Source: a virus (taxonomy: Duplodnaviria; Caudoviricetes). From it: a stretch of DNA of 57,376 nt. The stretch covers positions 1-57,376 of IMG/VR virus record IMGVR_UViG_3300023197_000044; one strand, 5' to 3'. The position numbers and the translations under genes are program-made. The notes under the pieces were generated by a model. The model saw only the letters and a list, made by a program, of their open reading frames with translations, had not been told where the DNA came from and ran no database searches. Below, one piece after another: positions 2,881 to 56,958 of the stretch. Positions within the stretch are counted from its first letter, which is position 1; every line of letters starts with the position of its first letter.

Positions 2881-2934
2881 ACTGTTGGTTGTCTTCGTGT
2901 GAATAGAGTGACTGCCCGGTAGGGCAGGGTGGTG

Positions 2935-3465
2935 CTACACCATTGCCTCTTTCTCGGCTTCCGTATCGCGCTCCAGGGCATCCTCCTGGGTGAACTCCTC
3001 CGGGAAGCGCTCACGGAGCTTACGGTTGTTCGCCTGCATGATCTCCAGGAGGGAGGTGTCCAGGGCGTCGGCGAGGCGGGCGGCGTAGTAAAGGATGTCG
3101 CCAAGCTCCTCTTTCAAGTTCTCCTCATCCGGCTCCTCCCCCTCTGCGAGTACGGCACGGAAGCTCTCCATAACCTCGCCGCCCTCCGTTCCGAGCCCGA
3201 GTACGGCGTGCAGCATGTCCCAGGTCTCTTCGTCGAGTTCCCCCAGGATGTAATCCTCGCCCCCGGCACCGCGCAGCACCCTTGCATTGTCGTCTCCGTA
3301 GAAAAGGGCTCGCTTGTGCTCGTCGAGGCGACCGTCGAGAACCTGATCGGCCTTCGTTAGGTCCCTCACAAGCTCCTCACCACGCGAAAGGGCAGGATGG
3401 GGGTCAGTGGTCCAGGTGCGTCGTCCCTGTTTCTGGAAGTCCTGTGCGTCGCTTACGTTATCCAT
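2935..3465 (-). CDS. MazG-like nucleotide pyrophosphohydrolase
   Basis: GLGTEGGEV...EELGDILYY...ANNRKLRERFP motif. Confidence 0.88.
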   Translation of the reverse strand: MDNVSDAQDFQKQGRRTWTTDPHPALSRGEELVRDLTKADQVLDGRLDEHKRALFYGDDNARVLRGAGGEDYILGELDEETWDMLHAVLGLGTEGGEVMESFRAVLAEGEEPDEENLKEELGDILYYAARLADALDTSLLEIMQANNRKLRERFPEEFTQEDALERDTEAEKEAMV

Positions 3466-3471
3466 GGTTGT

Positions 3472-3912
3472 CTAATTTCTCCTTGTTTGAAGTGTAATGG
3501 CACGCTCGATTAGGTCCAGCGTGTGTTCTTTGAAGAGGTCGTCCGGCACTGTCCTGATGAGAACGAAGCCGTGCAGGGCCACCTCGTTGTATTTCTCAAC
3601 ATCCTTCATAAACCCGGAGCCCCGTGTGTGTCCGCCGCGTGTCCAGACGCCACCCTCTACCTCCACGGCTACCCTCTCGTCGGGCCATGCGTAGTCGATC
3701 CGCCACTTTCGCGTATCGTGGAACTGGTGCTCGGGCTCAGGGCAGGGAAGTCCGCGCCCCTGGAGCAGCCCGCAAAACTTCCGTCGACGGGCGCGTTTCT
3801 TCTTCTTTCGCGCTTCTCGCTTCGCAGCCTTCACCTGTTTCTCGGCGTCAGTATCTTTGCGCCTGCGGTTGCGCCGCTTCGCTTCACGTAGCTGCTCCTT
3901 GGGGGACTTCAT
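3472..3912 (-). CDS. PD-(D/E)xK endonuclease (Vsr/DUF559-like phage nuclease)
   Basis: EHQFHDTRKWRIDYAWPDERVAVEVEGGVW...DVEKYN; start taken at MKSPKE. Confidence 0.78.
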   Translation of the reverse strand: MKSPKEQLREAKRRNRRRKDTDAEKQVKAAKREARKKKKRARRRKFCGLLQGRGLPCPEPEHQFHDTRKWRIDYAWPDERVAVEVEGGVWTRGGHTRGSGFMKDVEKYNEVALHGFVLIRTVPDDLFKEHTLDLIERAITLQTRRN

Positions 3913-3916
3913 CTGC

Positions 3917-4600
3917 TTAGGCGGGATCGTTCTGTTGGTTGTCGTCACCAAACAAGGACCCGAATTGCGCCTCACGCTGCAACCGCTTATCCCGGTGCTC
4001 CACGTCTAAATCTTCGAGGCGATCACCGGCCCCGAGCCAACGAATGATCCTCCGTGCCGGGGCGAGCTTGCCCTGATCTACGACGAGGCGAAGCCCGAAG
4101 CCGAAGTCCCTTTCCTGGCACTTCGAGCGGAACTTGTCCCCGGAGATCCCGCCGATGATCCTCATGGATTCCAGGTCGTCGCCGTAGATGAGGACGTAGA
4201 TGTCGGCGCCGGGGATGCGGTTCGGGTCGTAGCGCATGTCCCATGTCGGATCTCCGATCCAGGAGGCGTTCAGCGTCACATCCCGATACACCGGGAAGGA
4301 GTTCTCGTCAAGCTCGCCGGTTGGCACCTCGACCTCGACGTGCTTGCCCTCGTTACCGCCCAGCTTGATCTCCCTGTCCGGATCGACGCCCAGGGCCTTG
4401 GCGAGGGCGTATTCGGCTGCGAAAGCCATTACGTGCCCGTCTGTGCCGTACTGGTGGTCGGCCTCAAGCTGCGTGTCACTGTAAATGCCGGACGCCTCTT
4501 TCGCCCCCCGCCTTGATGATCCGATCTGAATGATCTCTTCTTGCTCCTCTTCGTCGATGTGGACTGGAACCCAGGCCGAGTCTGTGTTGAGCTTTTTCAT
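3917..4600 (-). CDS. Hypothetical phage protein (possible nuclease fold)
   Basis: Start MKKLNTD overlaps the dNMP kinase stop (ATGA coupling). Confidence 0.65.
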   Translation of the reverse strand: MKKLNTDSAWVPVHIDEEEQEEIIQIGSSRRGAKEASGIYSDTQLEADHQYGTDGHVMAFAAEYALAKALGVDPDREIKLGGNEGKHVEVEVPTGELDENSFPVYRDVTLNASWIGDPTWDMRYDPNRIPGADIYVLIYGDDLESMRIIGGISGDKFRSKCQERDFGFGLRLVVDQGKLAPARRIIRWLGAGDRLEDLDVEHRDKRLQREAQFGSLFGDDNQQNDPA

Positions 4601-5244
4601 TGGGCCTTGCGCTTGAGTGAGATGTTTGCGAGAAGTGCGTCTGCCGTCGTTTCGAGGTCGTCCAGCGAGCCGTTGTTGTCGACGAACCATTCTGGGATCA
4701 CCGAGGCGATTGCGCCTTCGCTGGCATGGGCATCGGCCCCGTCCCAGGAGCAGCCGTCGCGCTGCACACGGATGATGCTGCCGCCGTGCCAGCGAACCGC
4801 CTTGACCTCGTTGGGGAACCGCACGTCGTCGATCATAGCGATCTTGCCCATGCTGCGGGCCTTGCGGGCCTTGTTGATCGTGAGGCCGAGCCAGATGTCC
4901 TCGCCGACGACCTCCCGGCCCCACTCGGTTCCGAGCGTTTGCATGAGGGACCGTGAGGTGATGCCCTCGACGGGGAAGGGGGCAAGCTCCTCCTCCTTCC
5001 GGCTACCGTCAATGAACTCGTCGACCGGCTCAACACCGGCTTCCATGAGTAGCTGCCCGACCATGCGCTTGATCGGTCCCGCGAAGCGCATACGGTGCGC
5101 CATGCTGGGGTTATTGAGGCAAGACTGAATCGCCCTGGCGAGACTGGACTTCCCCGAGCCCTTCGGCCCGATAATCCCGAGTAAGAGTGGCATTGCCTTC
5201 CCCGAATAGGGAGAGAGCTTTGCGCTGAGTCCTGTGCGTTCCAT
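4597..5244 (-). CDS. Deoxynucleoside monophosphate kinase
   Basis: P-loop GPKGSGKS, FAGPIK, RSLMQTLGTEWGR, IDDVRFPNE. Confidence 0.92.
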   Translation of the reverse strand: MERTGLSAKLSPYSGKAMPLLLGIIGPKGSGKSSLARAIQSCLNNPSMAHRMRFAGPIKRMVGQLLMEAGVEPVDEFIDGSRKEEELAPFPVEGITSRSLMQTLGTEWGREVVGEDIWLGLTINKARKARSMGKIAMIDDVRFPNEVKAVRWHGGSIIRVQRDGCSWDGADAHASEGAIASVIPEWFVDNNGSLDDLETTADALLANISLKRKAQ

Positions 5245-5303
5245 GGTGTCTGGTTGTCTACTGAAAAAGGTAGGGGCTGGTAGGCCCCCGTGAAATGAGT
5301 TGC

Positions 5304-6464
5304 CTATGCCACAGCAGCTTGAAGCTCCTCGTCCTGATCGAACTCCTCAAGCTCTTCACCGGGCTGGAGGTACATGAGGGCGACAGCGCCACGCACTTCC
5401 GGCGTCTCCCCCTCGATGCGAACCCTCGTGGGCTCCTCCTCAATCGGAATGAACATCGACATGGATCGGCCCTTCATCGGCTTCACCACCTCAAGCATCC
5501 GGTCGGCGCTGCACTTGAGGCGCATCCGACCCATTTCGACAGTCTCAACGGGCACTGTGTAGGACGCGGAACCTCCCTCGCCCTCCGTCGCGCTCACGGT
5601 GAGCTTGTCGCCGTCGAAGTCGAGGAATACGCTACTGAAATCCTCCGTGTACTCCTGGCAAATCCGTAGCCCGGTCTCGAAGTCGTCAGAGGGCATCTTG
5701 AACTCCTGGGTGTTCTTCCGGTCGGGCATGATCGCCGGGTAATTCGGGTACTTCTCGGCGACGAGGCGGGCGCAGACAGCGCCGACCTCTGACACGAAAC
5801 TCGCCTCGCGCTCCCCCAGGTACAGGTTCACCGCCTGGTCTCCGTCAAGGATCGTGCGGATCTGCTTGAGGGCCTGCGCCGGGACAATCGACTCCCCGGA
5901 GAAGTTTTCCGCATCGCCCGCCTCGCCCATCTCGACCTCGACGAGGGAGGTGGTGTTGCATCCCACACACCGGATGCTGCCAGGGGAGTGGCGGTCGCCA
6001 ATGTAGATCCCGGCGAAGCGCTGGTTAGGGGCGTTGTCGTCAACGGCGCTTTCTGCCTGCTTGAGGGCGTCGGACAACCCACCCTCGTCCTCCAGGAGCA
6101 CCGGGTCGGCCTCTTGCTCCGGGAAGTCGATGAAGTCCTCGCCGTCGAGGCACGTGTGCTGAACCTCAATCGGCCCGCTGATCTCCAGGCCGCGCCTGCC
6201 CACGTCGAGAGTGAGTTCGCCGTTTACGCGACGGATCGCGCCGAGCAAGGGGGTAGGGTCGAAGAGCATCCGAACCGGCTTTTGGGCCTCGCGGGACACC
6301 AGGGCAAGCGTGTGGCTCATCTGGTTAAAGGAGCGGAGCCAAACACCCTTCGGCCCCATCTCCATGCAGACCTTCTGGTACATGAGGCCCATGCCCCGAT
6401 TCATCGTCCCGTCCTTGACGAAGGACAGCCGCTCATAGAATGTCTTTGCGTCAATCTTAATCAT
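5304..6464 (-). CDS. dnaN: DNA polymerase III beta sliding clamp homologue
   Basis: ~386 aa; DGEDFIDFP, ARLVAEKYPNYPAIMP and a C-terminal ALM motif; start refined to ATG 6464 using the shared leader motif. Confidence 0.85.
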   Translation of the reverse strand: MIKIDAKTFYERLSFVKDGTMNRGMGLMYQKVCMEMGPKGVWLRSFNQMSHTLALVSREAQKPVRMLFDPTPLLGAIRRVNGELTLDVGRRGLEISGPIEVQHTCLDGEDFIDFPEQEADPVLLEDEGGLSDALKQAESAVDDNAPNQRFAGIYIGDRHSPGSIRCVGCNTTSLVEVEMGEAGDAENFSGESIVPAQALKQIRTILDGDQAVNLYLGEREASFVSEVGAVCARLVAEKYPNYPAIMPDRKNTQEFKMPSDDFETGLRICQEYTEDFSSVFLDFDGDKLTVSATEGEGGSASYTVPVETVEMGRMRLKCSADRMLEVVKPMKGRSMSMFIPIEEEPTRVRIEGETPEVRGAVALMYLQPGEELEEFDQDEELQAAVA

Positions 6465-6516
6465 GTTGTGGTTGTCTTTTGAGTGGGGGGGTGTGGCGAG
6501 GTAACGCCACCGAAAT

Positions 6517-6822
6517 CTATCGAAGCTCCCGAGTGACCTCTTCCCAGGCTTGCGCATACATCGCCTCGTTCTCCAGCCTATGCTCGTGCAGCCCCCGGTG
6601 ATGGGCGACTGTCGAGTGATCCATGTCCAGGGCGCCCGCTACGTCTTGCAGGGTGTGCCCGACGTATCGGGTCGTCCACACCATAGCGATAGCGCGGGCC
6701 TGAACGGCTCGCCAGTGGCGGGTTTTTGCCAGGGCTGCGCGGTAGGGGATGCTAAAGGCCCGAGCGGAGGTGAGAAGCGTTTCCTCAACCGCCTCCGTGG
6801 GATCTTTCATCTTACGTGTCAT
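6517..6822 (-). CDS. Stand-alone DnaA domain IV-like HTH protein
   Basis: ARAIAMVWTTRYVGHTLQDVAGALDMDHSTVAH resembles the DnaA C-terminal RQIAMYL...SL..IG..FG.RDHTTV.H signature. Confidence 0.75.
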   Translation of the reverse strand: MTRKMKDPTEAVEETLLTSARAFSIPYRAALAKTRHWRAVQARAIAMVWTTRYVGHTLQDVAGALDMDHSTVAHHRGLHEHRLENEAMYAQAWEEVTRELR

Positions 6823-7502
6823 GCTCTTAGTAGTCCTTTGCTGAAAAGATTGTGGTTGTCTTCGTGCCCTCGCCAACGGCGGAAGTCCTCGTTGTCCACG
6901 ACAAGAACAGCGTCGTGGTAACGAGCGCCGTCTACCTCACCCTCCTGGATTGCCAGTCCAAGGTCAGAGCGCTCCCCCTTCGACCCCACAACTGACCCGA
7001 TGGGGCGGAAGGCGGGGCAGGGATGTAGACCCTGCGTGTACGCCTGGGTGCCGGTGAAAATGCGCTTTTGGTAGACCGGGCGCCCCATCCGAAGCGCACG
7101 CCGCACATCGTTCACCAAGAACTCCGTGTAGACGTTACCGTCTATCGAGCCGCGCTGCTGATTGAGCAGGAGTTCCATGTTCTCTTCGCGGACGGGAACG
7201 ATATCCCACCCCGCTGCCTGCCCTCTCGCGGTACTTGCGGTCTCCTTCCCAAGCTGGGCTCGCTCGACGCCTATTCGGATCGTGGTCGTGTAGGTCCGTG
7301 CCATGTTGACCTCGTAGCTCAGGTCCTCTACTGGCACAACCGGCATCCAGCCTTCGAACGCCTCATTCCACACAACACGGTCGCCCTCAGATGACAGGGG
7401 GCCGGTGCGGATTGCATCCTCGACCGTACCCACGGTGGAGGACTTAATGTGGGCGGCATCACCCACCCCAATGAGTCGAAGATCCTTTGGAGGGCGTATC
7501 AT
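6819..7502 (-). CDS. Hypothetical phage protein
   Basis: ORF translationally coupled to both neighbours. Confidence 0.7.
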   Translation of the reverse strand: MIRPPKDLRLIGVGDAAHIKSSTVGTVEDAIRTGPLSSEGDRVVWNEAFEGWMPVVPVEDLSYEVNMARTYTTTIRIGVERAQLGKETASTARGQAAGWDIVPVREENMELLLNQQRGSIDGNVYTEFLVNDVRRALRMGRPVYQKRIFTGTQAYTQGLHPCPAFRPIGSVVGSKGERSDLGLAIQEGEVDGARYHDAVLVVDNEDFRRWRGHEDNHNLFSKGLLRA

Positions 7503-9145
7503 CTGCGCACCTCCCGGCTCACAGTCCGCCGAGCGGACTTGAACCGGCCCTCAAGCTCGCGCTCCCGCATTGGGGGCTCGCACTTCTCATTAACGTCTTT
7601 CAGTTTGCGCCATGCCTTGCGCTCGCCGTGCTCCCGGAGGAGTTGGCATCCTGCCATAAACAGGAGCTTCGAGCGCCCACGGTGGAGCTTGTCGCCTTTG
7701 TCCCACCAGACGACACCCTCTGCGCAGCCCTCCATGGCGCGGTTCATTACGCCGCTCTGTTTTGGTTTGCCCGAGGCTTTCTTCGCCTCGCCAAAGGAGG
7801 GGATGGTAGCCTTGCGCGTCGTGTCCATCGCTCCGACCATTGCCTCGACGAGGCTCGGTACTGCGGCTATCGACATCGGCTGAACGTGCCCAATATCGTA
7901 AAGCGAGTGCGTCTTTGACTCGTTGAGGACGTGCTGGAGCGTCATGTTCTCCGCTGAGAACTCCTTCGCGTCCCAGGCGGTCACGTGGTACCCGTTCGCC
8001 CGGACACTCCCGATCAGGCGAATGTTCTGCCTGGGATCACACGTCGAGAGGTCAACGTCCTCATCGGCTACCGCTTCGCAGAAGCGCCTAAGTATGCGTT
8101 CCGCCTCTGCGGAGTTGGCAAAGACGGGGGCGCCCGCCATTCCACTCGGAATGCGGATATGGAACCCCTTCTTGCCTGAGAAGGACACGTGGACCTTCTC
8201 CAGAGGGGCGCCGAGGTTGCCCAGCCGATCAACGATCCGTCGTGCGACCTCCCACGCCTCCCAAAGGTCTTCTCTGTCGATGTCGAACGTGATCCAGGGC
8301 ACCGCCTGGGCTTTGTTCGCAAGGCCCTCTTCGCCCTGTCTCCAGGCTCCTATTGTCGTGAAGCGAACGCCGTTCGCTCCGGTGCTTGCCACTTGACGGG
8401 ACCAGCCGAAGATGTTGCCGTAGTTGCCCCGTCCGTACTTCGACAGGCTCGTGACGACCTCGCCCTCAGTAAAAACAGTGGGATTGTCGGCTACGAATGC
8501 CTCGCCGATCACGTCAACCACGTTCGTAAGGCCCTCGCCAGCGCCGTAGACTTCTTCGTCCGGCGCTGCCCCGGAGTGAAGGAGACGAGCCCCGGTGTAG
8601 CGACACTGCGGAAGCTCCTCCGCAGCCCCGGCGAGGAACGTCCCCTCGAAGCTCCACACGTAGCCGAAGCATCGGTTGCCGTGCGGGTGCTCTACGCGCC
8701 GTAGCCAGCCGTCGTCTTCCAGGCGACCTACGGCCTTGCGCATCCGGTCATAAAAGCGGTCGAAGGTGTCCCCGTCCCCGTCCTGATGAAACCAGCGCTG
8801 CCACAGGTCCCGCGCAATGCGCTCAATGGAGAGGATGAATGTACCCTTCGGCTTGGTGTACTCCCCGAAGCCCTGGAATTTCACCACGCGCTCGGACGTG
8901 TCCCGGACTTTCTCCTCGAACAAGAGGCGGGCGAGTACAGCGCACTCGATCCGGGCACCCATGTGAGTGAAGAGCCCAATCTTCTCTGCGACCACCTCTG
9001 GCAGGGCCAAAAACGCCGAGGGGTTGTTGCCTGTCTTGTCGTATCCTCTTTGCTGTAGCTTCTTAAATGTATCCTTGTCAATCGGCGCACTTGCCTCCAG
9101 ATAGGAGGGGAACCCGCCTTCCTGCGTTGCCTGCTTAGTAGTCAT
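7499..9145 (-). CDS. Replication protein with archaeo-eukaryotic primase (AEP/prim-pol) domain and PriCT-like C-terminus
   Basis: ITFDID (DxD), SFSGKKGFHIRI (SGxKGxH), IRL and a C-terminal NEKCEPPMRERELE. Confidence 0.85.
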   Translation of the reverse strand: MTTKQATQEGGFPSYLEASAPIDKDTFKKLQQRGYDKTGNNPSAFLALPEVVAEKIGLFTHMGARIECAVLARLLFEEKVRDTSERVVKFQGFGEYTKPKGTFILSIERIARDLWQRWFHQDGDGDTFDRFYDRMRKAVGRLEDDGWLRRVEHPHGNRCFGYVWSFEGTFLAGAAEELPQCRYTGARLLHSGAAPDEEVYGAGEGLTNVVDVIGEAFVADNPTVFTEGEVVTSLSKYGRGNYGNIFGWSRQVASTGANGVRFTTIGAWRQGEEGLANKAQAVPWITFDIDREDLWEAWEVARRIVDRLGNLGAPLEKVHVSFSGKKGFHIRIPSGMAGAPVFANSAEAERILRRFCEAVADEDVDLSTCDPRQNIRLIGSVRANGYHVTAWDAKEFSAENMTLQHVLNESKTHSLYDIGHVQPMSIAAVPSLVEAMVGAMDTTRKATIPSFGEAKKASGKPKQSGVMNRAMEGCAEGVVWWDKGDKLHRGRSKLLFMAGCQLLREHGERKAWRKLKDVNEKCEPPMRERELEGRFKSARRTVSREVRR

Positions 9146-9210
9146 GCACAAATGCCAGATCCCCACCGCCCCGCCTGGTAGGGCAGGGAAGCGGGTCCGG
9201 GCGGATATGA

Positions 9211-9456
9211 TTACTTGCCAGTGTCGGTGCCTGCGTCCTCTTCGTCAGGAAACAGGGCTCCCTCTTCGGCGGGTACCTCATCGGCGGTATCCCCCTCAGA
9301 AGGGGCGTCGTCTGTGGACGCCTCAAGGCCGCGCTCGTACGCCTCGTCGATCTTGTCCTCGACGTAGGCGACCGTCTTGGATACATTGAAGAGCCGCGAC
9401 TTCACGGCCCGCTCAATGTGATGTGTTTGCGGGTGTGGACACTTGCGTTCACTCAT
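9211..9456 (-). CDS. Small acidic hypothetical protein
   Basis: Preceded by the shared hairpin (9490-9507) and TAAGACAACC motif. Confidence 0.65.
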   Translation of the reverse strand: MSERKCPHPQTHHIERAVKSRLFNVSKTVAYVEDKIDEAYERGLEASTDDAPSEGDTADEVPAEEGALFPDEEDAGTDTGK

Positions 9457-9508
9457 TGGCTTGGGTTGTCTTAGTGAGGGAATTATGGGCTGGGGGAGTA
9501 GCCCCAGG

Positions 9509-11359
9509 TTACGCTTCCGCCTTCTCTCTACGGAGGAGCGCCTTCTTCGCGTCGATCAGGGCACTTGCTTCCCCCTTGCTGATGTTCGAGGGGTAGTCGA
9601 CGCCCAGGCGGTCGAGGAAACCCTTCTGACCGCTCGTTGCCTGCCCGGAGTGCCACCGAGCCGTGTGCTTCATGATTTTCCTGATGTCGCCGTGCTCGTC
9701 CGTGATGCGCTTGTCGATCTTTCCAATCGCATCTTCGAGGCTGCCATAGGTCACGTCGGGGTTGTAGGTCGCCCCCTTGATCTTCTTTCGGGAACCGTCC
9801 TGCTCGACGTACTGCGTTGGGTAGTGGAACGACACTTCCCAATCCCCGAGCATGTCCTGCTCGACGCGGACATCAAATTGCCGGTCAGCCGGGACACTTA
9901 GCTGGTAAACACCCTGCCCCATGTCCATCCATCGGTACTCGCTGACATCCTTGATGTCGTCGCTGGGGTTCGCCACGTCGAAGACGGTGATCTCGTCGGC
10001 CTCGACCTCCATCTCTTCGATGCTCGCGGCGTCCCTGATCTCCTCCTCTTTAAACGGGTTCTCCTCGACGATCTCCTCGACTTTCGGCACTACGTCCTGC
10101 ACCATGCGGGCCGGGGTCTCGTTGTCGAGCGAGGTGGAGTCGAAGTCCGACGACATGCCGAACAGGTCCGGCGCACGAACGATGTCGTGGTCCCCGATCA
10201 GGTCTGCGAAGTCGATCAGCGTCATGTACGGCTTATCCGACTCCTCAATTGCCTGGAGCCGTTCCGGCTTCGTGTCCAGGTTCCCAATCGAGGGCGGCAT
10301 TGTGCGCGTGCCTCGACCGAGCATCTGGATGTAGAGCGGGGTCGACTGCGTGGGGCGGGCCATCAAGATTGACTGCGTGCCGGGGGCGTCGAAGCCCTCG
10401 GTCAGCACCATACAGTTCGTGACGACCTGAATCGTGCCGTCCTTGTACTGCTCAATGATCTTGTCGCGCTCGCCCTTCGGCGTCTTGCCATCGACTGCGA
10501 CCGCCGCAACGCCACTCTCACGGAACTGCTCTGCGAGGTCATGGGCGTGGGCTACGTCGACGCAAAATGCAATCGACGAATCCCCGCAGTATTGGCGCCA
10601 TCCCTCGACGATCACCTGATTCCTTTCCGGCGTGTTTGTCGCGTTGGAAAGCTCACCGACCGCAAAGTCCCCAGCCCGACTCGTCACCTCGTCAATGTGC
10701 TGGTTCGTGTTGACCTGGAGGGCGCGAACGTCGGCGAGGTAGCCGTTTTCGATGCCCCACTGTAGGTCGTAGTTAGACGCGATCTGCCCGTAGAAGTAGT
10801 TCAGGGCGATCCCGTCGTTGCGATTCGGCGTTGCCGTCACCCCCACGCTAAGGCGCGGCTGGTCGTTGGGCAACAGGTCGTCGTATGCGTCGTCGGTGCC
10901 GAGGCCGAGAGGGGAGAGGATGTTGTCGTAGGTGCCACCGGGCTTGACGTGGTGGGCTTCGTCAGTCACCACAATTCCGATCTGGCGGTGCTTCATTAGC
11001 CGGTTGAGGCGGCTCCGGGTCCGCCCGAGCGTCTGCCTGCTCGTGACAATGATGTCGGCGGTCGGATCGGCGCTGTACTCGGCCTTCTCCAGGTCAACCC
11101 GAAGGCTGGGGCATACCCACTGGAGGGAGTCTTGCGCCTGATAGGCAAGCTCGGTCGTGTGAACGACCACGACCATTCCGTACCGAACAAGCTCCGGGAA
11201 GAAGGCAGGGAGGTGGGCGAACGTGATCGTCTTACCCAGCCCCGTCGCCTGTGAGACGAGTTGGCGGTTCACACCGCTGTCATACCCCCTACGGATGCTC
11301 TCCAGCGTCTCTCGCTGGTAGTCCCGCAGGACTATATCTGGATTCGTGGTTACTTGCAT
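9509..11359 (-). CDS. Superfamily 2 DExH helicase (IRC3/RadD-like)
   Basis: LRDYQ, ATGLGKT, DEAHH, TATP, TEGFD, QMLGRGTR motifs. Confidence 0.95.
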   Translation of the reverse strand: MQVTTNPDIVLRDYQRETLESIRRGYDSGVNRQLVSQATGLGKTITFAHLPAFFPELVRYGMVVVVHTTELAYQAQDSLQWVCPSLRVDLEKAEYSADPTADIIVTSRQTLGRTRSRLNRLMKHRQIGIVVTDEAHHVKPGGTYDNILSPLGLGTDDAYDDLLPNDQPRLSVGVTATPNRNDGIALNYFYGQIASNYDLQWGIENGYLADVRALQVNTNQHIDEVTSRAGDFAVGELSNATNTPERNQVIVEGWRQYCGDSSIAFCVDVAHAHDLAEQFRESGVAAVAVDGKTPKGERDKIIEQYKDGTIQVVTNCMVLTEGFDAPGTQSILMARPTQSTPLYIQMLGRGTRTMPPSIGNLDTKPERLQAIEESDKPYMTLIDFADLIGDHDIVRAPDLFGMSSDFDSTSLDNETPARMVQDVVPKVEEIVEENPFKEEEIRDAASIEEMEVEADEITVFDVANPSDDIKDVSEYRWMDMGQGVYQLSVPADRQFDVRVEQDMLGDWEVSFHYPTQYVEQDGSRKKIKGATYNPDVTYGSLEDAIGKIDKRITDEHGDIRKIMKHTARWHSGQATSGQKGFLDRLGVDYPSNISKGEASALIDAKKALLRREKAEA

Positions 11360-11429
11360 GGGCGCATGGTTGTCTTATTCGCCTTTCAGTGAAGCGCCGG
11401 GTAAGGCGCTGTACCCCTTACAGTTGCGG

Positions 11430-11526
11430 TGGAAAGGGCGGGACTCGAACCCGCATTAGCCGTTTCGGAGGCTGCTTTCTCCAGCCGATCTTCGAGCCTT
11501 CACAATAGGCGACCTCCGACCTCTCC
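11430..11526 (-). ncRNA. Atypical tRNA-like element (expanded D region, non-canonical anticodon arm)
   Basis: Acceptor GGAGAGG/CCTTTCC, T arm GCGGG-TTCGAGT-CCCGC, extra hairpins between them. Confidence 0.6.
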
Positions 11527-11597
11527 AGGTGCCCCTCTTTTCATCCACGTGGGGGCTTACGTGCCCAGGAATTTGCGCCCCTGGTCGGCGCGTAAAA

Positions 11598-11668
11598 TGC
11601 AGTCGGGAAGGGACTCGAACCCCTCGGCCTCCGTCTTCGCGGTGTTCTGCCTCTGAACTACCGACCGC
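11598..11668 (-). ncRNA. Degenerate tRNA with shortened anticodon arm
   Basis: Acceptor GCGGTCG/CGACTGC, D arm GTTC-AGAGGCA-GAAC, T loop TTCGAGT; anticodon arm reduced to CCG-CGAAGA-CGG. Confidence 0.65.
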
Positions 11669-11716
11669 CCACAGGGGCAGGGATTCGGCCCTGCTCTTGT
11701 GAGGCTAACTTGGCGC

Positions 11717-12349
11717 TTAGAACGGGAAGCCGTCGTCGGCCTGCTCGGCGGGGGCGCCGTCTCCCGCCGGGGCGCCGTCCCCCTCGTATTCCGGGAATCC
11801 GTTCTCCTCGGCAGGTGCCTCGGCCTGTCCTGGCGTCAAGTTCGGGACCTCCGACTTGTTTTTCGGTTCGCTGTAGCCGACGATCTCCGCGCTGATGCGG
11901 CCCTTGCCGCCGCCGTCGACGTGCTCCCGGTAGTCCTCCTCCTCTACGTCGTTCTTCCAGCCGCGCTCGGTCTCAATCGAGTATTCGTGACGAACCTCGA
12001 CACCGAAGCGCATGGGCGTCTCACGGACGAACTGCTCGGCGAACTCGTCCCACGAGCTAACGTCCTGCGACCACTCGTAGCCATCCGGCAACTCGTGGGT
12101 GCGGGTGTTCGAGCACATGGAGAACAGCCGGTCCTCGCCGATTCCGTACTCGGTGCCCATCGTGAGGTATTCCGTCATTTCCAGGCGGCAATCCGGGCCG
12201 TTGTCAATGACGAGCGTGGCGACGAGCATGTCGTTGCCGTTCTTGCTCACGTCGGCCTTCATGTTCTTGATGCTGACATCCTGGTGCCCCTCACTCGGTA
12301 CGCTGGAGGAGCCAAATTCGGATGCGTCGTTCATGTCGGGAAAATTCAT
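11717..12349 (-). CDS. Putative ssDNA-binding protein (DUF669-like)
   Basis: Beta-rich N-terminus with SKNGNDML; acidic tail ending DDGFPF; near the Sak4-like ATPase. Confidence 0.72.
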   Translation of the reverse strand: MNFPDMNDASEFGSSSVPSEGHQDVSIKNMKADVSKNGNDMLVATLVIDNGPDCRLEMTEYLTMGTEYGIGEDRLFSMCSNTRTHELPDGYEWSQDVSSWDEFAEQFVRETPMRFGVEVRHEYSIETERGWKNDVEEEDYREHVDGGGKGRISAEIVGYSEPKNKSEVPNLTPGQAEAPAEENGFPEYEGDGAPAGDGAPAEQADDGFPF

Positions 12350-12418
12350 GGTTGTGGTTGTCTTTCGGTTGATAGATTATGAACGCCTCGTGCGGGCGGA
12401 AACCCGCTTAGGATGATC

Positions 12419-12835
12419 CTAATTGGCGAGGCGGGCTTTCATGCTGGCTCTTCGGTTCTTCAAGATGGAGAACCAGTCTTCTTCGTCGATCTGGGCATCA
12501 CCGAGCCAGTATTCCCACTTCTCGTCGTCAACCTCGATCATCAAGTTGTCCGGTGAGAAGTCAAGCTCGATAGTGCGCACCAGGAGCGGTTCCCATCCCG
12601 GTGTGTGGAGCCACCTACCGAACGTGGCGCCAGGGGAGGACTTTAGGGTCGAAACCCATCCGTCCCCGCAAAGCCCGCATTGAAACGTCTTCTGCTCGCG
12701 GGTCTCGACGCCGTTGCTCTTTTCGTTCATGCCTTGCATCACCCGCAGGGCCTTTGCTCCGCAGCACTTGCATCGTGCGTCGGAGGTAGCGGAAAACGGA
12801 TTGGAGGGGGAGCTATTCATCGTCACCCCCGCCAT
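12419..12835 (-). CDS. Hypothetical zinc-finger protein
   Basis: CKCC...CGLC. Confidence 0.6.
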   Translation of the reverse strand: MAGVTMNSSPSNPFSATSDARCKCCGAKALRVMQGMNEKSNGVETREQKTFQCGLCGDGWVSTLKSSPGATFGRWLHTPGWEPLLVRTIELDFSPDNLMIEVDDEKWEYWLGDAQIDEEDWFSILKNRRASMKARLAN

Positions 12836-13751
12836 TTAGGCGATTCCCGAGTTCCTGAATCCGGGCCTTTACGCCCTCCAGTGTGTCGGGTACGTGGCGC
12901 TTCGCTTCAAGGCCCTTGTTCTCGTAGTGCTTATATGCGGCCTTGAGGCGCTTGAGCGCCTGTCGCATCGGTCGTGCGTCCTTCTCGACCGGCTGAGGCT
13001 CCGTGACCGTGCTAAACTTTGGGTCGTAGATCAACCGTCCGTGGTTGACGCCCTTCGTCACCGCCCCGACGCGCTTCTGCCCCAGGGCAGGGCGGCTAAT
13101 CCAGATGATGCTTTCGGCGAGGTACGGCCCGGTCTTCCAGAGGTCGATCACTTTCTCGCCCGTTTTCGAGTCGTCAATGTACTCGTCCTTGATTCGGGAG
13201 CACATCACGACGTTGTGCTGCTTGCGTATCTCGCCAATCCAGCCGTCGAGAATCGGGTAAAGCTGCCCATACATCATCGGCGGGATCGGGTCGTCGCCGC
13301 GCTTCATTTGGTAGTTAAAGCTCGCGGCGGCAATGCCCAACAGGTCCGAGGCTGAGTCGATAACGACCGTCCCCCGCTCTGCGTCGGCAAGGACCGACAC
13401 TGCCTGATTCATCTTCTTGTCGACGCCGAACCAGGGTGCGAACCAAATGTCTTCGGCGTCCCCATCGGCCTTCGGCTCCAGTGCAAGGTGCCGGATGTCC
13501 TTCTCCGGGAACGACTTGACGAGGGTTGCGACCTCATGACCGGCTTCGGTGCCAATCACGTGGAGTGGGCCAGGGGCGGTAGCCGCGAAGTGGGTCTTGC
13601 CGCTTCCCTCTGGCCCAATCGCAATCACCACCTCGTTCGGGTGCTCAACCGGCTCAAAGAGCGCGTTGTACCTGGAACTCTGACCCGGCGCCGCGTCAGC
13701 CTCGGGCGGTTCGGGCTGGGACATAACATCCTCTGCTGTTGATGTGCTCAT
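12813..13751 (-). CDS. AAA_24 / Sak4-like ATPase (recombination)
   Basis: Walker A GPEGSGKT, Walker B VVIDS; start refined to ATG 13751 by the leader motif. Confidence 0.8.
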   Translation of the reverse strand: MSTSTAEDVMSQPEPPEADAAPGQSSRYNALFEPVEHPNEVVIAIGPEGSGKTHFAATAPGPLHVIGTEAGHEVATLVKSFPEKDIRHLALEPKADGDAEDIWFAPWFGVDKKMNQAVSVLADAERGTVVIDSASDLLGIAAASFNYQMKRGDDPIPPMMYGQLYPILDGWIGEIRKQHNVVMCSRIKDEYIDDSKTGEKVIDLWKTGPYLAESIIWISRPALGQKRVGAVTKGVNHGRLIYDPKFSTVTEPQPVEKDARPMRQALKRLKAAYKHYENKGLEAKRHVPDTLEGVKARIQELGNRLNGGGDDE

Positions 13752-13806
13752 GGTTGTCCTCCGTGATTTGGGAGTGGGGCAGGGGTAACTGCCCACGGGC
13801 TGCGGA

Positions 13807-14079
13807 TTATTGGAGAAGGATCTGCTCAAGTTCGGCAAGCTCCTTCGTGAGCGCTTCCCTCGCAATCTTCGCGTTACTGATTGCCGCCTGGACCTTACCC
13901 GGCAAGTTGTTGGGTAAATCCCTGTCGTAGGGCGAGCTATTGGCGAACTTGTTGACCTCTGCGATCTCCTCAATTGCGTCGTCGAGGCGACCGATCAGGG
14001 CTCGGTAAAGCCCGAGTCGGTAGTTGGCTCCCTGCCGCATGAAGTCTTCGGCGCTATTAGCTTTGACCGTGGTAGCCAT
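13807..14079 (-). CDS. Hypothetical protein
   Basis: Preceded by hairpin 14118-14133 and a motif variant. Confidence 0.7.
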   Translation of the reverse strand: MATTVKANSAEDFMRQGANYRLGLYRALIGRLDDAIEEIAEVNKFANSSPYDRDLPNNLPGKVQAAISNAKIAREALTKELAELEQILLQ

Positions 14080-14146
14080 GGGATTGGTGTCTTTTGGTGT
14101 GAAGGAGTTGGGTACTCGCGCCGGGTAGGGCGCTTGCGCTTATCCG

Positions 14147-14220
14147 TGCCCCCGGCAGGAGTCGAACCTACGGCACGCGGCTTAGGAAGCCACCGCTCTG
14201 TCCGTCTGAGCTACAGGGGC
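14147..14220 (-). tRNA. tRNA-Arg(CCT), phage-encoded
   Basis: Cloverleaf with anticodon arm GTGGC-TTCCTAA-GCCGC and T loop TTCGACT. Confidence 0.93.
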
Positions 14221-14230
14221 GAATCTCCTC

Positions 14231-14539
14231 CTACTCGCTGGGTAGGTTTTCGCTTGCGTAGATACGGCGGCGCTCTTGAATGCCCAGGTTTTTCAGGCGG
14301 TAGGTGCGCTCGGTGGAGAAGCCCAGGGCTCGGGCCATGCGGAGGAGGGTGCCGATGCGCTCGTGACCGTCGGCCTTCATGGCGGCGTAACAGGCGTTCC
14401 GATGGATGCCTTTGCCACGGTCGGGGTCGGGGTTGTCGCATCGACGTGCGACAGCACAGGGGTTGAGATCGCGCCGCTCCATCTCCTCAGAGACGAGCGT
14501 GCGCAGTTGGGGCGCAGTCAGGTTCATGGGGACGTGCAT
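14231..14539 (-). CDS. Small putative HTH regulator (first gene of the replication operon)
   Basis: XRE-like pattern LRTLVSEEMERRDLNPCAVARR...IGTLLRMARALG. Confidence 0.55.
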   Translation of the reverse strand: MHVPMNLTAPQLRTLVSEEMERRDLNPCAVARRCDNPDPDRGKGIHRNACYAAMKADGHERIGTLLRMARALGFSTERTYRLKNLGIQERRRIYASENLPSE

Positions 14540-14578
14540 GGTTGTTTCGATGTAAGCGGGCGGTAACCCGCGAATGAA

Positions 14579-14615
14579 CTACAATTAATGTAGAGCCTAT
14601 CGTTAGCACAAGCAA
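14579..14615 (-). promoter_or_regulatory. Sigma70-like promoter with an overlapping inverted repeat
   Basis: Minus strand TTGCTT (14615-14610), 17 nt, TACATT (14592-14587); inverted repeat CTACA-ATTAA-TGTAG at 14579-14593. Confidence 0.65.
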
Positions 14616-14823
14616 GGGCATTATCTTAATTCACTCTGCCCCTTTGGGTCTTCATGACCCCTTCGAGTACGTCCTAAACGTGACCCCGCTCAGAGCCCCA
14701 ATAGGAGCTTTCCGATAGGTGTGGTAGAGCAGGGATATATAGTACATAGTACAGTGTATCAGTGAGTGGGTCGTGGGCGGGGGCGTGATCGTGTGTGGGT
14801 GCACACACGCGGGGCGTGTGTGC

Positions 14824-15102
14824 CTATGGGCCTGTGTACGTGGGCGTGATTGCCCGTGCTTGCATGGGCTCGGCCCGCAACTCGTGCTCGACACGTGCCT
14901 GGAACAGAACCTCCAGTCGCTTGAAGAGCTTCGTTGACACGCTCCACCAGGGGTGGCTATTGCATGTCGGCTGTTCAGCCTCCCAGGTGACTTCGTTGCT
15001 GGAGTAGCTGTAAGTTCGCCGGTACACCCTGCCCCCCATGCTCATTTTTGAGCGCTGGGAGGGGGCATTGATCTCGGTAATCTTGGGGTTTTCTTCTGGC
15101 AT
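14824..15102 (-). CDS. Hypothetical protein
   Basis: ORF co-oriented with the early genes. Confidence 0.5.
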   Translation of the reverse strand: MPEENPKITEINAPSQRSKMSMGGRVYRRTYSYSSNEVTWEAEQPTCNSHPWWSVSTKLFKRLEVLFQARVEHELRAEPMQARAITPTYTGP

Positions 15103-16463: not shown

Positions 16464-16499
16464 GGTTGTCTTTCCTGTTGAGTGAGTGTTGAATGATTG

Positions 16500-53252: not shown

Positions 53253-53355
53253 CGTGAGGCACACCCGGTTGACGGCTGGGCCTGAGCCCCTATATTGGAG
53301 TACACTCTTACTCACCGGCCCTTACCGGGGCTTATTGCAAACAAAGGAGGCAACC

Positions 53356-53832: not shown

Positions 53833-53943
53833 TGAGCACAGGTGTAAGCGGAACCCCTGGCGAGGACGTGCCCGATTGGGTACCTTGGGAGTGTAGTTGA
53901 TTGAGGGGCTTACCGGCCCCCATAATCCCAAGACAACCATGAC

Positions 53944-55162: not shown

Positions 55163-55226
55163 CGAGCACGCGACGAACTCACTCTACGGGTGCTTACCGG
55201 CGCCCTACAACAACCAATAGACAACC

Positions 55227-56594
55227 ATGGATATCAGCTATCAGGAATTGCGCAACCGAATGGCGAATCAGTACCGCAGAAAGATTCTGGAGGACGGTTG
55301 GGGCCGTCACCGGATCGCCGACGACGCCTCGGCGAAGTACGGTTTCGGGGTGTCCCGGAAGCAGGCCCGCAAGGTAATCAACCGGGTCCGGGAAGAGGCC
55401 GACGCCCCGCCCGAGGTTGGCGACGTGGTAGAGGTTCACACCCCGGAGTCCGATGTGGACTACGAGAACGGCGAGGCGAGCACCGTATCGGCCCGCCCCA
55501 TGACGATGGACGAGGCTATCGAGCACCTGGGCATCAACGAAGAGGACTGGAGGATCATCCGTCCGAAGGTGGGCACGTACGAGGGGCAGTGCAAGGTGGA
55601 TGTGGTGACCGGCTACGACGCCGAGGACGAACCGATCACCGAGCAGGAGCACCGCGTCAAGACGATGTATAAGTTCGAGTTCGCCCTGGAGCGGCGCCAC
55701 CCTGCCGAGACTGAGGCATTCGCCGACAAGCTCCTCGAACAGGTCGCCGACGAGGCCCCGATCTACCGAGCCAACATCCAGCAGCCGAAGACGGGGAACC
55801 TGATGCGGCTGCACATCCCGGATCTCCACGTGGGCAAGGAGGGGTACCAAGCTGACTGGTCTCCCGACTCGGTCCGTGAGCGCGTCTTTCGCGTCCTCGA
55901 CGAGTTCGTTGCCCTGGCAGAGCAACACGGAGTGGACCGGATCTCCTGGCCCCTGGGGCACGACATCCTCCAGGTAGACCGCACCTTCGAGCAGGGCAGG
56001 GCGGGAGGAGGGGGTACCCTCAGCACCACGTCCAGCGGCACGCCGGTCACCTCGGCAATGCCGTGGATCGAACAGTTCCTCCTTGGCTGCGACCTCGCAG
56101 AGCAGATCGCCCGTCGCCTATTGGAGGTAGCGCCCCTGGACATCAACGTCGTTCCCGGCAACCACTCCGAGCAGTCCGAGATTGCCATTGGGCGCGTGAT
56201 GATCGCGGAGTTCAGGAATAGCCCGGACGTGCGGGTCAACCTCGACTCCAGCCGAGACAAATACTACGAGTGGGGCGTCAATGGCTTCATGGACACGCAT
56301 GGAGACACCGTGAGCTTCAAGAAGCTCGCTATGGCATTCGCCACCTCCAACGGAGAGCTTTGGGGCAAGAGCAAGTGGCGAGAGGTCAACGTGGGGCACA
56401 AGCACGTCACCAAGAAGCGCCCGGTGGGTATCCGAAGCAATGAGACAGGCGGGTGCTGCGTTTACATCTCGCCCTCACTGAGCCCACAGGACGAGTGGCA
56501 CGCGAAGTACCACTACCACGGAATGCCGGGTGCCCAGGCGTTTATGTACCACAAGGAGCGCGGCCCCTTTGCCAACTACGAGCGGTTCTTTTAG
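55227..56594 (+). CDS. Calcineurin-like metallophosphoesterase with an N-terminal extension
   Basis: DLHVGK, GHDIL, PGNH, HGD, GHKH motifs. Confidence 0.85.
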   Translation: MDISYQELRNRMANQYRRKILEDGWGRHRIADDASAKYGFGVSRKQARKVINRVREEADAPPEVGDVVEVHTPESDVDYENGEASTVSARPMTMDEAIEHLGINEEDWRIIRPKVGTYEGQCKVDVVTGYDAEDEPITEQEHRVKTMYKFEFALERRHPAETEAFADKLLEQVADEAPIYRANIQQPKTGNLMRLHIPDLHVGKEGYQADWSPDSVRERVFRVLDEFVALAEQHGVDRISWPLGHDILQVDRTFEQGRAGGGGTLSTTSSGTPVTSAMPWIEQFLLGCDLAEQIARRLLEVAPLDINVVPGNHSEQSEIAIGRVMIAEFRNSPDVRVNLDSSRDKYYEWGVNGFMDTHGDTVSFKKLAMAFATSNGELWGKSKWREVNVGHKHVTKKRPVGIRSNETGGCCVYISPSLSPQDEWHAKYHYHGMPGAQAFMYHKERGPFANYERFF

Positions 56595-56664
56595 TGCGGA
56601 TTGTGGGCTTAACCACCTATTCACCGGAATCTTGGGGTTGTGGCACAGGTCAGGCTTGAGAAGA

Positions 56665-56718
56665 ACTTGCAACTACGACCCGGTGACTTGCAACTACACC
56701 CCGACCATGTTATATAAA
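56665..56718 (+). promoter_or_regulatory. Predicted promoter of sRNA-A with an overlapping direct repeat
   Basis: TTGCAA (56688-56693), 17 nt, TATATA (56711-56716) with extended TG; ACTTGCAACTAC at 56665 and 56686. Confidence 0.65.
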
Positions 56719-56720
56719 TA

Positions 56721-56814
56721 TGCCTGCTTAGGCAAAACAAAGGCGGTTTTAGCATGGTTGTCTTCCCGCCTGATAGTGCCCGCATCGCCCCAACGGTGTG
56801 GGCATTTTCTATTT
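56721..56814 (+). ncRNA. Predicted sRNA-A, antisense to the phage-wide AAGACAACCATG start motif
   Basis: Hairpins TGCCT-GCTT-AGGCA and AGGCGG-[TTTTAGCATGGTTGTCTTC]-CCGCCT; terminator TGCCCGCATCG-CCCCAA-CGGTGTGGGCA-TTTTCTATTT. Confidence 0.7.
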
Positions 56815-56833
56815 GTGTGCAGCCTAAGCAAGC

Positions 56834-56958
56834 AAAGAAAAGGGCCGCAGCCGATACCTTCCCTGGCTACGACCCGAGCGGTATAGGGCCGTTGGCGCCG
56901 GTAGGCACCCTCTCATTTCTCTTCGGCCCTCTGGTTGTCTTCGCCGTCTACTTGTCTG
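56834..56958 (-). ncRNA. Predicted sRNA-B carrying the sense motif and the YUACCG hairpin (decoy-like)
   Basis: Minus strand CGGC-[GAAGACAACCAGAGG]-GCCG and GGTGC-CTACCG-GCGCC; terminator GGGTCGTAGCC/GGCTGCGGCCC-TTTTCTTT; TATATT at 56968-56963. Confidence 0.58.

Follow-up and report, generated by a model that had tools for sequence, protein, structure and literature searches.

Gene arms and probable host of the prophage

The DNA analyzed here is the entire IMG/VR record IMGVR_UViG_3300023197_000044 (57,376 bases, hereafter called the window), and the element in question is a family of small hairpins with the hexaloop YUACCN, which are found just upstream of start codons across the window. Near its ends, the window carries a perfect direct repeat of 51 nucleotides (nt) (76–127 and 57269–57320) that is identical to the 5′ portion of a tRNA-Phe gene; the left copy is adjoined by an integrase gene. 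The record is therefore a complete prophage of ∼57.2 kb in tRNA-Phe, flanked on either side by a few dozen bases of the host, and the CheckV completeness estimate of 50% for this record is probably too low. The duplication at the attachment site is unusual in that the 5′ part of the tRNA is doubled, not the 3′ part. The leftward arm of genes runs from ∼22.4 kb down to 1.7 kb, contains many small open reading frames (ORFs), and encodes ArdA, a Sak4-like protein, a helicase, a primase-like protein, a sliding clamp, a deoxynucleoside monophosphate kinase, and MazG. The rightward arm, from 22.9 kb, contains the endolysin gene, a low-GC island at 27.7–35 kb, and, after it, the genes of the head and tail; within this half, only the portal gene (35240–36637) is on the minus strand.

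The host is pointed to, not proven: it is probably a Salinibacter-like bacterium (Rhodothermia, Bacteroidota), which would have a salty cytoplasm and ribosomes blind to the Shine-Dalgarno (SD) sequence. The top matches of the helicase are Salinibacter phages (32–34% identity), the head module is syntenic with that of Salinibacter phage M8CC-19 and shares its odd layout, and the predicted phage proteins are strongly acidic. The tRNA-Phe is 93–95% identical to those of Bacteroidota genomes, in which the 3-kb loci around these tRNAs have a GC content of 61–67%. In addition, “hypersaline lake” metagenomes (runs X3 and X4, from one study) contain 34–46% of the words sampled from a 9-kb stretch of the window.

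Number of hairpins and comparison with chance

Both strands of the whole window were scanned for the loop YTACCN closed by a stem of ≥ 4 bp, counting Watson–Crick and G·U pairs, and 30 hairpins were detected. In 200 dinucleotide-preserving shuffles, the mean ± standard deviation was 2.91 ± 1.78 and the maximum was 9, so the family of about 30 copies described in the initial annotation is real and well above chance. The commonest hexaloop closed by ≥ 4 bp was TTACCG, with 21 copies, and the next unrelated loop had 6. Without any selection on pairing, a stem of ≥ 4 bp was present at 21 of the 44 occurrences of TTACCG, at 3 of the 30 occurrences of CTACCG, and at 0–2 occurrences of each of the other six variants. 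We also calculated a pair-count statistic (85.6% of cells paired vs. 55.6% in shuffled data), which is partly circular because the sites had been picked for pairing; the fair tests of the hairpin are the enrichment over the shuffles and the TTACCG count.

A covariance model (R1), a check that the initial annotation had proposed, was built from the 30 copies and run with filters off. It gave 31 matches at 17.6–27.3 bits, cleanly apart from the remainder (≤ 12 bits), and indicated three copies with one-letter loop variants: TTACTG at 25361, CTACTC at 9490, and TTTCCG at 12392. All three are followed by the same leader and start motif as the other copies. The total family is ∼33 copies, or approximately one per 1.7 kb. 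The arms, loops, and coordinates that had been read by eye at 2912, 6493, 11393, 13777, 14556, 15478, 17068, 18259, 18797, 19493, 19916, 40199, 41767, and 53905 were all correct.

Stem, loop, and RNA sense

The stems are 4–7 bp long and consist almost entirely of G–C pairs, with folding energies of −5 to −12 kcal/mol. Among 31 copies there are 23 different arm pairs, with compensation: the stems vary while the pairing is kept, and conservation falls on the loop. All 30 scanned copies share U, A, and C at loop positions 2, 3, and 4; in the full set of 33, TTTCCG is the one variant to deviate at position 3, and two variants lack the C found in all other copies at position 5. The first position is U or C, the sixth is G in 24/30, and the closing pair is C–G in 25/30. 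Pairing of G6 with U1 or C1 is possible and may reduce the exposed loop to a UACC tetraloop, which is how RNAfold draws the hexaloop. To our knowledge, UUACCG is not among the special stable hexaloops of the nearest-neighbour tables. An invariant loop on 23 stems in 31 copies fits recognition of the loop sequence together with the shape of the stem.

The sense of the element was examined through its wobble pairs. When G·U pairs were allowed, the count rose from 23 to 30; six of the wobbles are internal and flanked by Watson–Crick pairs. When A·C was allowed instead, which equals G·U on the other strand, three other sites were added, and no internal case was present among the 30 copies. G·U pairs are present at 16813, 22434, 24438, 42354, 55188, and 56894, as had been noted, and further ones were found at 9169, 36667, 53317, and 5272. 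Every copy lies on the strand of the local genes, and the orientation flips with the lone minus-strand portal gene (36667). The earlier reading of a strand-specific element at the RNA level is thus upheld: the internal wobbles fit the mRNA sense only, and all copies are on the coding strand. These results support formation of the hairpin in the mRNA; the sequence alone would also allow it to form in single-stranded DNA of that strand. When each copy was folded with 60 nt of context on each side, the minimum free energy (MFE) structure included 25 of the 33 hairpins, and the mean pair probability was 0.77. The idea of a restriction site was tried and rejected: CCGG, which lies inside most copies, occurs at 373 sites in the window vs. 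410 expected, and is neither depleted nor enriched.

Start codons, leader, and start motif

Thirty-one of the 33 copies end 2–42 nt (median, 25 nt) upstream of a start codon. The association with start codons described in the initial annotation therefore stands, whereas its distance of 10–50 nt is replaced by the measured range, taken from the 3′ end of the stem, with the copies at 13998 and 56894 as exceptions. Directly before the ATG there is usually a 9-nt start motif, the non-SD sequence AAGACAACC, and at least 24 of the hairpin-associated starts match AGACAACC at 7/8 positions or better, ≤ 9 nt from the ATG. AGACAACC places A at −3, −4, −6, and −8. The exact sequence AGACAACCATG occurs 17 times in the window vs. 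0 for the reversed control, for example at 3463–3473 (−), 17039–17049 (−), 22877–22887 (+), 41794–41804 (+), and 55219–55229 (+). At three starts (13751, 43686, and 53356), GGAGG is combined with the start motif. The leader from stem to start (755 nt in total) consists of 39% A, 37.5% C, 12.6% T, and 10.9% G, and since it is rich in C and A and poor in G, it cannot fold on itself; its stretch between the hairpin and AGACAACC is 2–24 nt long. The repeated cassette is therefore an upstream stop codon or tRNA-like element, a G–C stem of 4–7 bp with the loop Y-U-A-C-C-G, the leader, AGACAACC, and ATG. When 60 nt on each side of the loop were aligned in 31 copies, no position outside −5 to +9 reached 0.5 bit.

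On the upstream side, the stop codon of the preceding ORF is 0–14 nt from the hairpin in 17/33 copies, and in other copies the preceding gene is separated from the hairpin by a tRNA (Arg-CCT) or by a tRNA-like T-arm element. First-cistron leaders with no upstream gene also carry the hairpin (22434 and 36667), and the element therefore belongs to the downstream gene, not the upstream gene.

Intrinsic termination was considered and rejected, as none of the 23 hairpins in 5500–25450 was among the 20 terminator-like sites of that region; the 10 nt after the stem contain 0–5 T, mostly 0–3. True terminator-like hairpins with T runs are present at 1637–1658 (−) and at 41220–41270 (+), the latter after the major head gene. 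The former lies between ORF 1690–2181 and the integrase gene, and its loop, TTAACG, is one letter off the family loop. Promoter-like sites numbered 4 vs. 5.4 expected, with none at a hairpin, when searched with the sigma-70 consensus, which may not be that of the host.

The minus strand also contains tRNA-like elements between early genes, each with an acceptor-like stem and a perfect T-arm, GGTTCRAnYCC. Their T-loops are at 22229, 18840, 17109, 15544, 11619, and 11449, and a tRNA-Arg(CCT) is at 14146–14220. A tRNA or T-arm element lies 10–40 nt upstream of the hairpins at 14118, 18797, 17068, 15478, and 11393. ARAGORN called only two tRNAs in the window, and at a threshold of 70% it called 459 “genes” and was uninformative on these elements; in the Rfam search, there was a borderline tRNA at 11600–11666, and there were sub-threshold YrlA/tmRNA matches at 11383–11526. 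The tRNA-like elements may be processing signals or tRNA mimics. In the noncoding stretch after the first leftward ORF (22140–22270, −), a 10-bp stem with a T-loop-like loop is followed by the unpaired sequence CCTTACCG, and this may be a small RNA gene.

Copies along the two arms

In the leftward arm, all copies are on the minus strand, and each is written here as 5′ arm, loop, and 3′ arm. At the left end, three copies were recovered by both the scan and the model: CTGCC-CTACCG-GGCAG (2912–2927), 31 nt before ATG 2880, and GGGGGC-CTACCA-GCCCCT (5272–5289), 27 nt before ATG 5244, both with the start motif, and GTGGCG-TTACCT-CGCCAC (6493–6510), 28 nt before ATG 6464 of the sliding clamp. The weakest member, CCCTGCC-CTACCA-GGCGGGG (9169–9188; 17.6 bits), contains an internal U·G pair and has only a GTG 2 nt downstream, and its membership is uncertain. 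Two of the loop variants follow, namely CTGGGG-CTACTC-CCCCAG (9490–9507; 12 bits), 33 nt before ATG 9456, and GCGGG-TTTCCG-CCCGC (12392–12407; 11.5 bits), 42 nt before ATG 12349, both of these starts carrying the motif. Between them, AGCGCC-TTACCC-GGCGCT (11393–11410) precedes the helicase gene. At this start (11352–11375, −), the motif is followed by the ATG (11367) of a mini-ORF of five codons, and the helicase ATG (11359) is 8 nt further on in another frame; the mini-ORF may be a coupled or regulatory upstream ORF.

Further along this arm, GGGCAG-TTACCC-CTGCCC (13777–13794) is 25 nt before ATG 13751 of the Sak4-like protein, GGGCT-TTACCG-AGCCC (13998–14013) is intragenic, within ORF 13807–14079, and is possibly a chance copy, and GCGCC-CTACCC-GGCGC (14118–14133) lies just 3′ of the tRNA-Arg and 38 nt before ATG 14079. 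Next are GCGGG-TTACCG-CCCGC (14556–14571; ATG 14539, 16 nt), GGGGC-TTACCG-GCCCC (15478–15493; ATG 15446 of the WYL_2 protein, 31 nt), CCCC-TTACCG-GGGG (16084–16097), which directly follows a TAA stop and is 7 nt before ATG 16076, and GCGCT-CTACCG-GGCGC (16813–16828; ATG 16784, 28 nt), whose closing pair is U·G. The same stem and loop, GCCC-TTACCG-GGGC, recurs at 17068–17081 (ATG 17041, 26 nt), 18259–18272 (ATG 18234, 24 nt), 18797–18810 (ATG 18769, 27 nt), and 19493–19506 (ATG 19464 of ArdA, 28 nt), and GCGCC-TTACCG-GGCGC (17593–17608) is 23 nt before ATG 17569. The remaining copies of the arm are GGCGC-TTACCG-GCGCC (19916–19931; ATG 19886, 29 nt), GCGC-TTACCG-GCGC (20042–20055; ATG 20018 of a 27-codon ORF, 23 nt), and CGGGCC-TTACCG-GGCTCG (22434–22451), which has an internal G·U pair and forms part of the first leftward gene's 5′ leader, 33 nt before ATG 22400. 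A possible degenerate copy with a stem of 3 bp, GCG-TTACCA-CGC (20764–20775), precedes the motif-bearing ATG 20744 and falls below all thresholds.

Between the two arms is a divergent control region (22453–22885). It contains an 18-nt perfect palindrome (22705–22722) beside TATAAT, an inverted repeat GTGAA-N4-TTCAC (22552–22565), and a run of GGAAA-type G/A-rich repeats directly upstream of the hairpin at 22434; all of these are candidates for the operators and promoters of a lysis–lysogeny switch. A second possible degenerate copy, UC-UUACCG-GA (22836–22845, +), caps a longer hairpin with imperfect pairing in the 5′ leader of the rightward arm's first gene (ATG 22885), and the model misses it.

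In the rightward arm, plus-strand copies begin with GGCGC-TTACCG-GCGTT (24438–24453; ATG 24470, 16 nt), GGGC-TTACCG-GCCC (24660–24673; ATG 24684 of the endolysin, 10 nt), and the third loop variant, GGCCC-TTACTG-GGGCC (25361–25376; 19.9 bits; ATG 25393, 16 nt). No hairpin and no start motif is present in the low-GC island (∼27700–35100; GC content 48% vs. ∼60% elsewhere), which encodes a DNA methyltransferase (29009–30922), an SbcC-like ATPase (31841–34120), and other ORFs without assignment, and is probably a recently acquired defence or anti-defence module. CGGGGC-TTACCG-GCCCTG (36667–36684, −) is 29 nt before ATG 36637 of the portal gene. The plus-strand copies resume with GGGGC-TTACCG-GCCCC (40199–40214), which has the top score (27.3 bits) and is 25 nt before ATG 40240 of the major head protein. 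GGCGC-TTACCG-GCGCC (41767–41782) and AGGGGCC-TTACCG-GGCTCCT (42354–42373, with an internal G·U pair) are 19 nt before ATG 41802 and 32 nt before ATG 42406, respectively. These two genes belong to a set of three tandem paralogues (41295, 41802, and 42406; region 41295–43158, +) with the common N-terminal motif AFEERIxNIKQRRGV, so that two paralogues are each preceded by a family hairpin with a different stem. GGCCC-TTACCG-GGGCT (53317–53332) is 23 nt before ATG 53356, with the leader GGAGGCAACC, GGGGC-TTACCG-GCCCC (53905–53920) is 18 nt before ATG 53939, and GGGTGC-TTACCG-GCGCCC (55188–55205), with an internal U·G pair, is 21 nt before ATG 55227 of the exonuclease. The last copy, GGTGC-CTACCG-GCGCC (56894–56909, −), is near the right end of the prophage and has the start motif upstream instead of downstream.

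Occurrence in host-like genomes, phages, and metagenomes

No Rfam family corresponds to the hairpin: at the gathering threshold, only three tRNAs were called, and at E ≤ 10 the only overlap with a hairpin was a sub-threshold YrlA match (23.8 bits vs. a cut-off of 69) spanning the tRNA-like element beside 11393. The four Bacteroidota genomes with the most similar tRNA-Phe had 1–2 model matches each (150 of ∼1000 candidates scored), and in 151 genomes of the same order, 81 had any match, with a maximum of four per genome (53 candidates scored in each). We inspected 24 of the matching loci; these had 1–3 hairpins each (3 in L237 and 2 in L235), set in sequence that looks coding and followed by ordinary G-rich sequence, and none had a CA-rich leader. 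In four host-like genomes, GACAACCATG was as rare (2–4 occurrences per genome) as the reversed control (0–3). In these stand-ins for the host, the hairpin is thus not a dispersed host repeat, the outcome that the initial annotation had named as fatal to its reading.

Three cultured Salinibacter phages (150 kb in total) gave two model matches of 18 bits, and no loop of size 4–7 was over-represented in them. The leaders of M8CC-19 are CA-rich and lack both an SD sequence and AGACAACC; this phage has a recurrent motif of the CTAATCATAA / TAACCATAAC type ∼10–25 nt upstream of many start codons, which may be its own leader or promoter signal. From their scarcity in host-like genomes and Salinibacter phages, the hairpin and start motif are features of this phage lineage. 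DNA patterns of the loop plus the start motif found 43, 66, and 96 stretches with a single match in three collections, with no cluster of hairpins; the best stretches were one tandem coding repeat and scattered AT-rich chance stems. Homologues of the major head protein at 57–96% identity are present in a protein collection, and the protein is < 30% identical to that of any cultured phage. No locus for it was found in viral, metagenome, or genome contigs, with either the single sequence or a 13-row alignment as the query. A megablast search of the phage collection with 10 kb of the window gave no match, and the search for relatives gave one distant locus with the helicase and none with the sliding clamp.

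In the lake-water run X6, a contig of ∼90% identity joins 18267 to 18816, between two identical hairpins, and omits gene 18299–18769; the joint is seen in one low-depth contig with 32 letters on its short side. In the mRNA sense, the joint hairpin has the 5′ arm GUCC and the loop CUACCG: the C-to-U change leaves a U·G pair, and loop position 1 carries a permitted Y. In a second X6 contig, the hairpin at 17593 is kept, and divergence sets in exactly where the hairpin ends on its downstream side, with another leader that ends in GGAGGAAACAACC. These single, low-depth contigs agree with the patterns observed inside the window and suggest that the cassettes may mark the borders of exchanged modules, as phage promoter early stem-loops (PeSLs) do. 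None of the 40 differences listed from the contigs of four DNA runs was in a hairpin (there were 1521 further differences).

Candidate partners of the loop

The basic outliers in the acidic proteome are a 167-amino-acid Arg/Lys-rich protein (3472–3975), a 61-amino-acid helix-turn-helix protein (24470–24655), and the WYL_2 protein (15183–15446), and these belong to widespread families or to no family. As for a partner RNA, the anti-loop sequence CGGTAR was not enriched on the coding strands (20 scattered sites, almost all in coding sequence), and the anti-start sequence GGTTGTY had two sites on the coding strands, neither yielding a candidate.

Discussion

We consider it very probable that the hairpin is an RNA-level, phage-specific element of cistron starts. 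How it would act is a matter of more tentative interpretation, based on the sequence. In class Bacteroidia, ribosomes do not use SD pairing, and in the phylum, initiation is modulated by the structure of the leader and by an A at −3, according to parts of the literature on these bacteria (PMC6847099, PMC7797042, PMC13000453), including a passage on mRNA structure and A−3 in Bacteroidetes (PMC6847099). With ribosomes of this kind and with A at four of the positions before the ATG in AGACAACC, a start cassette is favoured. In such a mechanism, which is possible and falls somewhat short of an even chance, each independently initiated phage cistron would carry its own start cassette in an SD-blind host, in a setting where initiation is assumed to depend on A at −3 and −6 as well as on a leader free of structure. 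The hairpin would have two jobs. It would lock nearby G/C-rich sequence in a closed stem, so that the leader stays single-stranded, and its invariant loop would bind a trans-acting factor, most likely a phage-encoded ORFan protein, which would either promote loading of the 30S subunit at the downstream cistron or shield the 5′ side of the cistron from decay. We infer a factor that reads the loop because the stems drift with compensation while the loop does not; moreover, we know of no thermodynamic advantage of this loop, and no partner RNA bearing the anti-loop was found in the phage.

Several observations weigh against this start cassette. No known RNA-binding regulator was found among ∼50 phage proteins searched in Pfam, PHROGs, and the ESM Atlas. 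The Arg/Lys-rich and WYL_2 proteins belong to families that are widespread in phages, and among the phages with those families, three Salinibacter genomes were checked and all lacked the hairpin. Eight of the 33 hairpins are outside the MFE structure, and two copies, the intragenic one at 13998 and the one at 56894, which has no start in the next 100 nt, precede no start. The spacing between hairpin and motif is variable, and together they therefore do not form one rigid binding site; the copies at 9169 and 16084 lack the start motif, and the motif-bearing genes at 16463, 21408, and 43686 lack the hairpin. In addition, the covariation is drawn from paralogous copies of one genome that were selected for pairing, and the genomes used as stand-ins for the host match the window at the tRNA only and not at the host flanks.

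A more ambitious version of the start cassette appears doubtful: the hairpin and AGACAACC would form a phage-private initiation system in which a phage factor or pairing between loop and rRNA docks the 30S subunit at about −25 to −40. If true, such a system would prioritize phage cistrons over host mRNAs, including internal cistrons on 20-kb polycistronic RNAs, and it would be the bacterial-virus counterpart of a viral internal ribosome entry site or a termination upstream ribosome-binding site.

The element might instead punctuate mRNA processing or stability, as a site for a loop-specific endonuclease or as a protective end left on the products, if long early and late transcripts were cut between cistrons alongside the removal of tRNAs and tRNA-like elements by RNase P/Z. 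We think this unlikely, although the intercistronic location suits it, with a stop codon shortly before the hairpin in about half of the copies and five hairpins just downstream of a tRNA or T-arm element, and there are precedents in the RNase III sites of T7 and the intercistronic C(UUCG)G hairpins of T4. Stems of 4–7 bp are too short for RNase III, a purely structural end-protector needs no invariant loop, copies are found in first-cistron leaders, and no nuclease candidate was recognized in the searches for phage protein families.

A loading site for processive antitermination, like boxB in a nut site, was the first of the protein-binding roles raised in the initial annotation, and it fits poorly; we regard it as rather improbable. 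Many sites could serve reloading along 20-kb operons, and both divergent early leaders carry the motif (22434 and the degenerate 22836). The G–C stem of ∼5 bp is like that of boxB, and the loop resembles the CUAACC hexaloop of phi21 boxB, described in the part of PMC12550061 concerned as a U-turn bound by the N peptide. Yet no boxA-like sequence is conserved at any fixed distance, the copies number ∼33 (vs. two in lambdoid phages) and extend into the late structural operon, and their position tracks start codons, not terminators. Moreover, the first leftward gene encodes a hydrophobic peptide of 44 amino acids instead of an Arg-rich N, and no match to an N, Q, or NusG-like family was found among the phage proteins searched.

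A role mainly at the DNA level, either as a PeSL-like linker for homologous exchange of cassettes or as a single-stranded DNA hairpin for a recombination or replication protein, is very improbable. The X6 joint between identical hairpins and the divergence at the edge of the hairpin at 17593 would suit such a role, and PeSLs, in the description available from PMC2839356, are recombining intergenic GGGG...CCCC stem-loops that flank ORFans. The strand of our hairpins always follows the direction of transcription, however, and their wobble pairs fit the mRNA sense only. A homology of 14–20 nt whose arms vary serves recombination poorly, such a role does not account for the link with start codons and the CA-rich leader, and the evidence of the joint is one low-depth contig of ∼90% identity; the shuffling is more likely a by-product of the repeats. 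Least probable of all is direct pairing of the loop with rRNA, in which UUACCG would tether the 30S subunit near the start in place of the SD contact. The host lineage is blind to SD, a hairpin end at about −25 is near the 5′ edge of the stretch covered by 30S, and one candidate target, the universally conserved CGGUAA of the 16S 530 loop (515F primer region), is a perfect complement of 6 nt. Any hexamer is expected approximately once by chance in ∼4.4 kb of rRNA, however, and a 6-nt match is not significant; the complementarity stops at the loop, the 530 loop, with its decoding functions, is buried, and the spacing to the start is variable.

Full-text literature searches found no described equivalent of the hairpin family. 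The C(UUCG)G hairpins of T4 are likewise small intercistronic G–C hairpins with one recurrent loop, and their UUCG loop is conserved for its unusual stability; for UUACCG, a factor that recognizes the loop is the likelier cause of conservation. In anatomy, the lambdoid and phi21 boxB elements are similar to our hairpin in having a short G–C stem that is required only to pair, a small loop of fixed sequence read as RNA, and a place in early leaders. The nearest structural analogue is phi21 boxB, with the pyrimidine-U-A-x-C hexaloop CUAACC as given in PMC12550061; the YUACCG loop of the phage hairpin differs from every boxB loop that could be verified, this one included. Compared with nut sites, the hairpins are numerous, are present in early and late operons, are tied to starts, and come without boxA and without a recognized N-like protein.

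Cluster K mycobacteriophages carry start-associated sequences (SAS) and extended SAS (ESAS); as far as the relevant sections of PMC3203893 describe them, these are also repeated motifs in one orientation just upstream of starts, with a dyad element at variable spacing, and their function is thought to be translational. In ESAS, the 17-bp arms are conserved, the spacer varies, and deviations lack compensation, and the authors saw little support for an RNA hairpin (PMC3203893), whereas in the present family it is the arms that vary, with compensation, and conservation is found in the loop. The SAS contains an SD sequence (PMC3203893), unlike the start motif here. The PeSLs of the T4-type phages RB49 and phi1 form a comparable intergenic cassette of stop codon, G–C stem-loop with G–T pairs allowed, ribosome site, and ATG, are dense among small ORFans, and flank indels between relatives (sections of PMC2839356), something at which the low-depth X6 contigs hint here. 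In that account, PeSLs have a strong sigma-70 promoter and the stem-loops act as terminators (PMC2839356); our hairpin is accompanied by no promoter- or terminator-like signal, and its conserved part is the loop. The 17-bp dyad repeats and the stoperators of mycobacteriophages (Clusters O and A, respectively), described in portions of PMC4351075, are similar in providing > 30 short symmetric motifs genome-wide. Their anatomy is the opposite, with invariant arms and a variable centre, and they are read as DNA sites for dimeric proteins; the Cluster O repeats show no orientation bias, and a third of these repeats lie inside genes (PMC4351075).

The observation itself is solid, and we would group the hairpin family with the repeated phage RNA hairpin signals that are read through the loop. 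How genes are started on polycistronic mRNAs in Bacteroidota that ignore SD is poorly understood, and almost nothing is known for their phages. In the present phage, two phage-specific signals, a loop-conserved hairpin and a 9-nt start motif, precede most of the independently started genes, and the hairpin may mark borders where related phages exchange genes. If it proves to be a processing or antitermination site, this would still be an unusually dense use of one RNA–protein recognition module. Should it bring in a factor or the ribosome, the hairpin would give this lineage a compact, portable expression signal through which initiation without SD could be approached.

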